A program made the position numbers and the translations under genes. The notes under the pieces were generated by a model. The model made no database searches and had not been told where the DNA came from. It saw nothing but the letters and a program-made list of their open reading frames with translations. A DNA stretch of 5,273 bases from a virus (taxonomy: Duplodnaviria > Heunggongvirae > Uroviricota > Caudoviricetes). Shown here in pieces: positions 197 to 3,784 of this stretch. The stretch lies in IMG/VR virus record IMGVR_UViG_2636415418_000002; one strand, 5' to 3'. Numbering within the stretch: the first letter of the stretch is position 1; each line of letters begins with the position of its first letter.

Positions 197-324
197 GCCC
201 CTCCCCTCATCACACACACCGTTCAAAAAACCACCACAACCTCGCTTCAGTTATCGCTATGCAATTCAAGTCACAAAATAAATCCATCCCAAATACAACC
301 AGTTATATCTAAAACAACCAATAA

Positions 325-367
325 AACAACTTATGTTGTTGACGATAATACAACTATAGTTTTAAAT
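325..367 (+). promoter_or_regulatory. Candidate operator/promoter: perfect palindrome AACAAC-TTAT-GTTGTT (325-340) overlapping a -35-like TTGACG (339-344), with a weak -10-like TTAAAT 17 nt downstream (362-367)
   Basis: Hexamers and palindrome read directly from the sequence. The -10 is a poor match (4/6), so this is weak; a 6-bp inverted repeat in an AT-rich region can arise by chance. Confidence 0.15.
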
Positions 368-644
368 AAGTTCATCGCAACAACACAATCATACGGCAAC
401 CACCGGATTCACCGTTGCGATGACCGCTTAGATCCGCAGCTTGAATTTCAGCAGGCTTTGGGGAGTGCGAGGGGTGAAACGGACGCGTGAACGTCGGTGT
501 GACCAGCTGAAATCAACACAACACTTTATACCTCAGTCGCTTCAACGAGGCGGCTTAGTTATGACAACCGGCGGCCATCCACCGCCTGAATACGCGCAGA
601 AGTCTCTATATGTTCAGCAGCCCAGCTTACGGGCAGGAGTTTTT

Positions 645-2691: not shown

Positions 2692-2846
2692 CGCATCCTC
2701 ACGATAATATCCGGGTAGGCGCGATCACTTTCATCTACTCCGTTACAAAGCGAGGCTGGGTATTTCCCGGCCTTTCTGTTATCAGAAATCCACTGAAAGC
2801 ACAGCGGCTGGCTGAGGAGATAAATAATAAACGGGGGGCTGTATGA
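2688..2846 (+). CDS. Small hypothetical protein (52 aa), positional equivalent of lambda orf60a
   Basis: Not in the ORF track. Hand translation gives [52 protein letters not shown]. Its ATG overlaps the exo stop (ATGA at 2688-2691) and its stop overlaps the next gene's ATG (ATGA at 2843-2846). Lambda likewise has a small ORF overlapping the exo stop. Confidence 0.5.
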
Positions 2847-3400
2847 CTGATTTCACCGGAAGCAATACTCCTGCCGAACATCGCGACAGCTGGCGCACAC
2901 CACCAGAGATTTTTGCTGCGCTTAATGCAGAGTTCGTTTTTCAACTTGATGCTGCAGCCAGCGAAAAAAACCGACTATGTCGGCTTTTTATCTCACAGGA
3001 GCAGAACACATTAACCACTTCATGGCCTGAAGCAATGGGATATGCCTCTGGTTATGTCTGGTTGAATCCACCATACAGCAATATTTCCCCTTTTGTGAAA
3101 AAGGCAGCCACTGAAAACAAATTCAGTAGTGTGGGATGTGTAATGTTATTGCCTGCTGACACATCTGTCGGATGGTTTCATGAAGCGATACAAACCGCCA
3201 GTGAGGTCAGATTCATCACGGCAGGACGACTGGCATTTATTAACCCACTCACCGGGAAACCCGTCAGTGGAAATAATAAAGGCTCGATGCTCATTATCTG
3301 GCACCCATACCCCCGTACACACTGCCACTTTACGACCGTTGATCGTGGAGAGTTGATGGCGTTCGGCTCAAGGATTCTTGCCCGTCGGGAGGCTGCATGA
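2843..3400 (+). CDS. Putative phage DNA N6-adenine methyltransferase (small Dam-like orphan MTase), 185 aa
   Basis: Contains the (D/N)PPY catalytic motif in WLNPPYSN, and an N-terminal WRTPPEIFAALNAEFVFQLDAAAS segment that resembles the WxTP...LDxAA signature I associate with the phage 'Dam' methyltransferase family (Pfam PF05869, from memory). No adjacent restriction endonuclease candidate is visible. Confidence 0.75.
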   Translation: MTDFTGSNTPAEHRDSWRTPPEIFAALNAEFVFQLDAAASEKNRLCRLFISQEQNTLTTSWPEAMGYASGYVWLNPPYSNISPFVKKAATENKFSSVGCVMLLPADTSVGWFHEAIQTASEVRFITAGRLAFINPLTGKPVSGNNKGSMLIIWHPYPRTHCHFTTVDRGELMAFGSRILARREAA

Positions 3401-3692: not shown

Positions 3693-3784
3693 ACATGAAA
3701 AGCAAAATCATCAGGGAGCTACAGGCTCCTTTTTTATTATTCGCATTCACCCTCAAGCGTATTAACCAACAATTCAGGGATTAA
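3689..3784 (+). CDS. Possible 31-aa micro-ORF (uncertain: it contains a terminator-like hairpin)
   Basis: Not in the ORF track. Hand translation gives MNMKSKIIRELQAPFLLFAFTLKRINQQFRD*. Its ATG (3689-3691) overlaps the orf71 stop (3690-3692) as ATGA. A hairpin plus T-tract inside it is the competing explanation for this stretch. Confidence 0.3.
   Translation: MNMKSKIIRELQAPFLLFAFTLKRINQQFRD
3714..3741 (+). terminator. Terminator-like hairpin (GGAGC-tacag-GCTCC) followed by TTTTTTATTATT
   Basis: Seen directly: a 5-bp stem (3715-3719 pairing with 3725-3729), extendable by one G-U pair, then six T at 3730-3735. The stem is short, so this is a weak intrinsic terminator at best. It overlaps the orf31 candidate. 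Confidence 0.3.

Follow-up and report, generated by a model that had tools for sequence, protein, structure and literature searches.

The left boundary of the lambda immunity region lies in the rexB-N interval, where the terminator T_IMM is followed by a spacer, the oL operators and the early-left promoter pL. N and nutL define lambda proper rather than all lambdoid phages, and HK022 has no N gene. The operators of the 434 repressor have the form ACAA-N6-TTGT. In the Rac prophage a Rho-dependent terminator, trac (named 'timm' when it was cloned), is situated between PRM-racR and kilR, and its failure is lethal (PMC4150792, PMC4496710).

We describe here a noncoding tract within a 5,273-nucleotide stretch of viral DNA (IMG/VR record IMGVR_UViG_2636415418_000002), which we refer to throughout as the window. 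An earlier note had singled out the tract for its shortage of G residues and had suggested that it could be a Rho utilization (rut) site acting behind an intrinsic terminator. We now consider it highly probable, from comparison with related sequences, that this tract bounds an immunity region on its left side, in an Escherichia coli prophage similar to lambda, and that it is the counterpart of lambda T_IMM-spacer-oL-pL. The feature thus appears to be a control region of ordinary kind, belonging to a widespread family of lambdoid prophages, and not a stand-alone Rho site.

Genomic setting of the tract

The window covers the early-left arm of an E. coli prophage that resembles lambda, and includes the 3' end of a DUF6414 gene (up to position 162), and downstream of the tract is kil, the first gene of the operon, which codes for a cell-division inhibitor (645-851, + strand; RefSeq WP_000233576.1; phrog_294, E 1e-37). 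This is followed by gam (927-1223), bet (1229-2014) and exo (2011-2691), a group of small genes and a methyltransferase gene, and an integrase gene from 4534. The upstream genes are revealed by the best genomic matches, NZ_CP117717 and NZ_CP069571, in which the order is a cro-like gene (- strand), cI (+ strand, with HTH_3 and Peptidase_S24 domains), cargo, terminator, tract, kil, gam, bet and exo. Two complete genomes and eight records of phages or prophages show this arrangement, with cI on the same strand as kil and one or two cargo genes between cI and the terminator. Of 5426 complete E. coli genomes, 2225 (~40%) carry a prophage of this family. Comparison with these relatives, and with lambda as described below, firmly establishes the location of the tract and its homology to the lambda sequence.

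The slot between cI and the terminator, which is equivalent to that of rexAB in lambda, has different cargo in almost every strain (L001-L004 and L007-L013). The cargo types include DUF6414, a HipA-like kinase with DUF3037, SIR2, a BamE-like lipoprotein and unnamed genes, and the slot looks like a hot spot for swapping accessory, possibly anti-phage, genes. A second small variable slot is at 2843-3400, occupied in the window by an N6-adenine methyltransferase gene that is also present in PhiR30_1 and is missing at that place from several otherwise collinear relatives. Further downstream, an intergenic gap inside the early-left operon contains an intrinsic-terminator-like hairpin of eight pairs followed by a T-run (3713-3741), upstream of a TraR-like gene, xis and int, in a phage that has no N.

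Base composition is composite

Direct counting of the + strand between 201 and 400 gives 81 A, 56 C, 16 G and 47 T, so that the hand count of about 16 G in 200 nt proves to be exact, and the runs that had been quoted as typical are located at 211-220 (CACACACACC), 311-319 (AAAACAACC) and 378-390 (CAACAACACAATC). The longer interval 198-440 contains 89 A, 73 C, 26 G and 55 T. Windows of 200 nt outside the tract have a mean of 50 G (sd 6.1, minimum 32), and because + strand C is also at least 32 in these outside windows there is no comparable depletion elsewhere on either strand. The largest C-minus-G excess of the whole window, both strands included, is in the 78 nt starting at 198 (198-275; 32 C and 6 G). 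It equals the maximum over all the other loci compared, the individual maxima of which probably come from their own homologous regions.

The base bias of 198-440 is composite, with several parts rather than a single element. The G share is 7-8% in 198-374, 20% in 375-440 and 30% in 441-560, in agreement with the switch in composition that had been placed near 441. The first part is C-rich (198-282; C 38%, G 7%), the second is A/T-rich (283-374; A 43%, T 29%, G 8%), and the third (375-440) is again C-rich with a normal content of G. The depletion of G is the sum of three sources: a C-rich spacer, an A/T-rich block of proposed operators and promoter in which ACAAC half-sites are mostly oriented one way, and the CA-rich first 30 nt of a predicted transcript.

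The tract was also correctly described as noncoding, and as following an intrinsic terminator and preceding kil and gam. The sole internal open reading frame (180-281), which has a GTG start within the terminator stem and is listed as a hypothetical gene in one phage, was considered and rejected, as indels of 1-2 nt in close relatives interrupt the frame.

The terminator and the predicted early-left promoter

A terminator scan identifies a 9-bp stem with six G-C pairs followed by TCTTTTG at 167-197 on the + strand, which we interpret as the intrinsic terminator closing the cI-cargo operon. A near-identical hairpin and tail is present at lambda T_IMM, just after rexB, and also in the relatives of the second immunity type described below, so that the terminator is a T_IMM homologue. 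Whatever the cargo gene upstream, the prophages become homologous to one another again at precisely 169/170, at the base of the terminator.

The putative early-left promoter is on the + strand and consists of a -35 hexamer TTGACG (339-344) and, after a 17-nt spacer, a -10 hexamer TTAAAT (362-367). The combination TTGACG-17-TTAAAT aligns base for base with TTGACA-17-GATACT of lambda pL, and the -35 hexamer corresponds to TTGATA in the second immunity type. The predicted start of the early-left transcript is at 374, 7 nt after the -10 hexamer, a position that aligns with the known start of lambda pL (CACATCAGCAGG). In this alignment CATCGCA of the window is matched to CATCAGCA at the lambda start, with CATC(A)GCA common to both. 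The predicted start is also the point at which the immunity-specific segment ends and a conserved leader begins.

The -10 hexamer has T instead of the near-universal A at its second position, and TTGACG-17-TTAAAT is omitted by a promoter scan. In the second immunity type, TTGATA-17-TATTAT at the aligned position is the only promoter-like site that the scan reports in 700 nt. Moreover, TTAAAT is invariant in 36 distinct sequences of the window's own type, including the three bases that are outside the operator overlapping it, and the six bases immediately after it are the most variable of the region. A promoter-like TTGCGA-16-TATAGT is present on the - strand at 353-380 and is directed opposite to kil. 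It makes use of the TATA at the centre of oL1, is not preserved in the second immunity type, and is probably incidental. A search for an IHF site with WATCAANNNNTTR, allowing at most one mismatch, gave no match inside 198-440.

Putative operators and two immunity types

Two 16-bp palindromes, which we propose to be operators, overlap the promoter. The first, oL2 (AACAAC-TTAT-GTTGTT, 325-340), has no mismatches to the operator pattern and overlaps the -35 hexamer; the second, oL1 (TACAAC-TATA-GTTTTA, 349-364), extends across the spacer of the promoter into the -10 hexamer, and the two are 24 bp apart, centre to centre. Among the 36 distinct sequences of this type (type A) the half-sites of oL2 are invariant and the bases beside it vary, and those of oL1 are nearly invariant. 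The same pattern is seen within each type, in that half-sites and the -10 hexamer are invariant or nearly so and the bases between elements (319-324, 345-348 and 368-373) are the most variable. The additional ACAAC half-site-like repeats upstream of the full operators, TACAAC at 294-299 and AACAAC at 313-318 on the + strand, point the same way, and TACAAC is invariant in the 36 type-A sequences. A pattern search found no matching right half for either repeat and no match to the full operator pattern at 294-318, and these repeats could be a weak third operator or nothing.

Between cro and cI, this prophage has related sites (TAAAAC-TATG-GTTGTT, TAAAAC-CTTG-GTTGTA and AACAAC-CTCC-GTAGTT). When the 10.3-kb context (L003) was searched with AMAACNNNNGTTKT, allowing at most one mismatch, six matches were found, all of them in the cro-cI intergenic region or at the equivalent of window positions 321-363. 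None of 200 shuffles reaches this count, and for a 9.5-kb context (L007) likewise none of 200 shuffles reaches the number observed there. Strong matches in contexts of 9-10 kb are confined to oR and the early-left site. In the 5.3-kb window alone the two matches to a degenerate pattern are not significant, since 36 of 200 shuffles reach two, and the case is thus built on oR and the second immunity type as points of comparison.

The repressors of these prophages are of two types that have a common C-terminal domain and different helix-turn-helix domains. For the type-A domain the closest solved structures are 434 repressor (E 6e-10) and 434 Cro (E 3e-8). Phage Perceval and its relatives code for the alternative cI, designated type B (WP_000712399.1, compared to WP_000858975.1 for type A), and in these genomes a segment of ~90 bp equivalent to ~283-373 is replaced by unrelated sequence within conserved flanks. 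The replacement contains AATAGC-AATA-AGTATT and AATAGC-AATA-GCTATT, 25 bp apart, with AATAGC-N4-AGTATT as the counterpart of oL2, and this motif is otherwise found only in the cro-cI regions of the same phages. In a reciprocal test of 11 loci, type-A sites with no mismatches were found only at oR and oL of loci with a type-A cI, and type-B sites (AATASBNNNNVSTATT, no mismatches) only at oR and oL of loci with a type-B cI. The operator sequence therefore co-varies with the DNA-binding domain of the repressor at both oR and oL.

Viral contigs were scanned with the conserved flanks, yielding more than 120 loci and 70 distinct middle segments. These are of two versions only, 36 of type A and 34 of type B, each exactly 145 nt between the anchors, and the scan of viral contigs revealed no further immunity type. 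At the level of sequence, the co-occurrence of the motif at oR and oL, the co-variation of operator and repressor and the pattern of conservation are all established. We identify the site as oL/pL because its operator motif is found elsewhere only at the cro-cI region and because the swapping of the segment tracks the DNA-binding domain of cI. An earlier suggestion that the tract might be a protein-binding region has thus gained ground for ~283-374, which is predicted to be a repressor-controlled early-left promoter and operator.

Two relatives depart from this organization. In one prophage (L015, IMGVR_UViG_2778261278_000009, at 549-706) a natural 24-bp deletion between ACAACT repeats fuses the operators and removes the -35 hexamer, and this prophage is probably promoter-dead. 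In E. coli O157:H7 MB9-1 (L011, 4151-4500) the operators are of type B, and the terminator after the cargo, the spacer and the first 35 nt of the leader are unrelated to those of the window, homology to which returns only at 408.

The spacer between terminator and putative operators

The operator model leaves two properties unexplained, the C-richness and G-poverty of 198-292 and the presence of the additional one-way ACAAC repeats at 294-318. The spacer at 198-292 (+ strand, ~95 nt) is rut-like in composition.

It is possible, though less likely than not, that the spacer has no sequence-specific function of its own, and is an inherited filler between T_IMM and oL that is kept because of its place beside the point of cargo exchange, its base bias coming from descent from a lambda-like ancestor together with A-tract or UP-like DNA upstream of the promoter. 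Consistent with this, it is partly alignable to the lambda T_IMM-oL3 spacer, including the block AAAATAAATCCAT at 275-287, which is common to lambda and at an equal distance from pL. Homology across different cargo begins at the terminator, such that terminator and spacer together are the backbone beside the swap point, and the O157:H7 relative works with an unrelated spacer. However, conservation of the spacer is good in the two immunity types alike, and G-poverty recurs in non-homologous versions, that of the O157:H7 relative having 12% G overall and 60-nt stretches at 3-10%, which hints at a constraint on composition.

More tentatively, the part of the spacer at 198-282 could be a rut site, where Rho would load on cI-operon RNA that reads through the intrinsic terminator. 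Release would then occur within the next 60-150 nt, possibly with CI at oL as a roadblock, and would keep the toxic kil gene silent in lysogens. A role of this kind would be additional to the promoter and operator function rather than a replacement for it, and would be restricted to read-through RNA over ~198-300. The original proposal of a single rut site of 240 nt is not sustained, because the predicted promoter sits in the middle of the tract: the core of the tract (~283-374) would be this promoter with its operators, and 374-440 the 5' end of a new transcript.

For the shorter interval the composition is suggestive, as 198-275 is the extreme of the window and has the C-rich, G-poor character looked for in ~70-80 nt of untranslated RNA. 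Little structure is predicted, with a mean unpaired probability of 0.67 for 198-282 and a centroid fold that leaves 198-366 open. In lambda too, the T_IMM-oL3 spacer has little G on this strand (10% G and 28% C over 173 nt), as has the non-homologous O157:H7 spacer. A fail-safe for kil would be biologically sensible because transcription of the cI operon is constitutive and kil is toxic, and there is a precedent in Rac, where trac is the Rho terminator that keeps kil off (PMC4150792, PMC4496710). Nonetheless, the intrinsic terminator upstream looks strong, with its 9-bp stem and T-run, and the lambda immunity-region terminator is described simply as intrinsic (bioRxiv 10.1101/2021.04.19.439022). 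Composition alone predicts Rho action weakly, substitutions in relatives bring in G (CACAACC to CACGACC), and the bias of the O157 variant is much weaker (C/G 1.9).

It seems rather doubtful that the spacer after T_IMM is a selected Rho-loading site that, with the intrinsic hairpin and oL-bound CI, forms a layered insulator silencing kil. If this were true, inhibition of Rho would release a second, widespread kil toxin in addition to that of Rac, from an element present in ~40% of complete E. coli genomes.

The predicted leader and the start of kil

The region between the predicted start and kil (374-644, + strand) is predicted to be an untranslated leader of ~270 nt. At its 5' end is a putative hairpin (372-423) with a perfect 10-bp stem, TCATCGCAAC at 372-381 paired with GTTGCGATGA at 414-423, and with the CA-rich run in its loop. 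This hairpin is present in both the minimum free energy and centroid folds; it has no compensatory change, and its 5' arm is replaced in the O157 variant.

It is very improbable that the CA-rich run at 378-390 is a regulatory RNA site, whether as a C/A-rich enhancer of translation or as an RNA that pairs with the GU-rich seed of the sRNA GcvB, as its target or as a sponge in the manner of the prophage anti-sRNA AgvB. CAACAACACAA is presumably complementary to the R1 region of GcvB and the run is conserved in both immunity types, but it is absent from the O157 variant. It is also within the predicted hairpin, ~260 nt before the first codon of kil, which leaves the enhancer proposed in the earlier note unsupported. 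When the whole window was scanned for duplexes with GcvB, the leader tile came about seventh (-29.9 vs -33.7 kcal/mol for the best, z ~ -2.3), with several coding tiles outscoring 378-388. The published consensus for GcvB R1 targets is CACAACA, and AgvB, an sRNA of 51-60 nt, differs both in its location, the PR' moron site, and in its family (PMC4104026).

Among 49 distinct sequences representing 121 loci, the GC-rich leader segment at 408-560 is almost without variation; it is more conserved than the surroundings of the operators, and ~430-505 is homologous to the lambda pL-N leader. Translational control of kil and some cis-acting RNA are both candidates for its role. A conserved RNA structure was considered, and was rejected when Alifold analysis of 37 distinct sequences revealed one-sided changes only, with no compensatory pair; the single-sequence fold of the leader has a z-score of -1.4. 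At the place equivalent to that in lambda no boxB hairpin was found and there is only a weak boxA-like CGCTTAGA, and the interval between promoter and kil contains no open reading frame with any match and no N gene. A put-like antiterminator was similarly rejected on comparison by eye with HK022 putL and putR, in that the common put blocks are absent and the predicted folds differ. Searching Rfam with the whole window (E<=1) gave no match, a result that is uninformative with regard to put because Rfam is also blank at HK022 putL and putR and thus has no put model.

In public records Kil is started at any of four codons, equivalent to ~441, 474, 561 and 645 (PP925829, OV696612, PV340555 and OM475427). 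The start at 645, giving a product of 68 amino acids, is the most likely of these from the sequences compared, and is favored because of a 2-nt indel between 561 and 645 in one relative (L012) and because of the PHROGs Kil profile, which spans residues 60-136 of the long open reading frame. The long frame from 441, which has an Arg-rich segment VKRTRERR, was also considered as an N-like protein. It was rejected because residues 1-59 have no family match, the DNA is homologous to the noncoding N leader of lambda, the L012 indel breaks the frame, and only 5 of 10 variable sites are at third codon positions.

A model for control of the early-left operon

By analogy with lambda and 434 we infer that CI binds these sites and represses the promoter, and we extend the same reasoning to cooperativity and to the position of the start. 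Transcripts of the cI operon, carrying cI and a variable cargo gene (here DUF6414), would end at the T_IMM-like hairpin at 167-197. In the lysogen, dimers of CI, with a 434-repressor-like helix-turn-helix and an S24 autopeptidase domain, would bind both operators cooperatively and block RNA polymerase, the bound CI covering both the -35 and -10 hexamers. Self-cleavage of CI upon SOS induction would lift this repression, and transcription would then start near 374, pass through the ~270-nt leader and continue into kil, gam, bet and exo and onward to xis and int.

This assignment does not change the general understanding of such regions, and its value is in annotation. The gap of ~450 nt is currently blank in public records, or is filled with spurious small open reading frames and over-long Kil calls. 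Assigning T_IMM, oL and pL places the predicted repressor-controlled start of the kil-gam-bet-exo operon, defines two immunity types together with their putative operator sequences, and identifies the terminator as the constant limit of the cargo slot on its right.

Comparison with known systems

The parallel with Rac is one of logic, in that a constitutive transcript of the immunity region must not reach a toxic kil gene downstream (PMC4150792, PMC4496710), and the spacer described here is rut-like in composition at the equivalent place. However, trac lies within racR and has no intrinsic terminator, whereas here a strong intrinsic terminator comes first and a role for Rho is conjecture; there is no sequence similarity. 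In HK022, a lambdoid phage that has no N, the pL transcript opens with the structured putL RNA, and the highly conserved leader here likewise begins with a predicted hairpin. The putL/putR motifs GAACGGC, GGAUGA and CAAUG are nevertheless absent, and the only resemblance of put to the leader is over 15 nt, GGGAG.GCG..GGGT.

The relationship to 434 is in the repressor and its sites. Of the solved structures, 434 repressor and Cro come closest to the type-A cI in its N-terminal domain, and the 14-bp core ACAAC-N4-GTTGT has the same outer ACAA...TTGT bases as the 434 operators. The recognition helix is SQAAIQK here and TQQSIEQ in 434, however, and the putative sites described here have a conserved C at half-site position 5.

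The tract as a whole has its parallel in lambda, although there are differences. The proposed operators are 16 bp (AACAAC-N4-GTTGTT) and those of lambda 17 bp, two full sites are detectable here and three in lambda, and the G-poor spacer is ~130 nt here compared to 173 nt in the rexB-N interval of lambda. There is no N gene or boxB, so that kil directly follows the leader, and DUF6414, HipA-like, SIR2 or other genes take the place of rexAB in the accessory slot. In other respects the two are alike. The order and strand are the same, with cI, accessory genes, an intrinsic terminator, a G-poor spacer, operators (putative here) over a sigma-70 promoter (predicted here) and the early-left transcript. 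The terminator hairpin and its tail are nearly identical, and the -35 hexamer, the start site, part of the leader and the upstream AAAATAAATNCAT block, which is at the same distance from the promoter, are all alignable. The two promoter-proximal operators are 24 bp apart, as are oL1 and oL2 in lambda.
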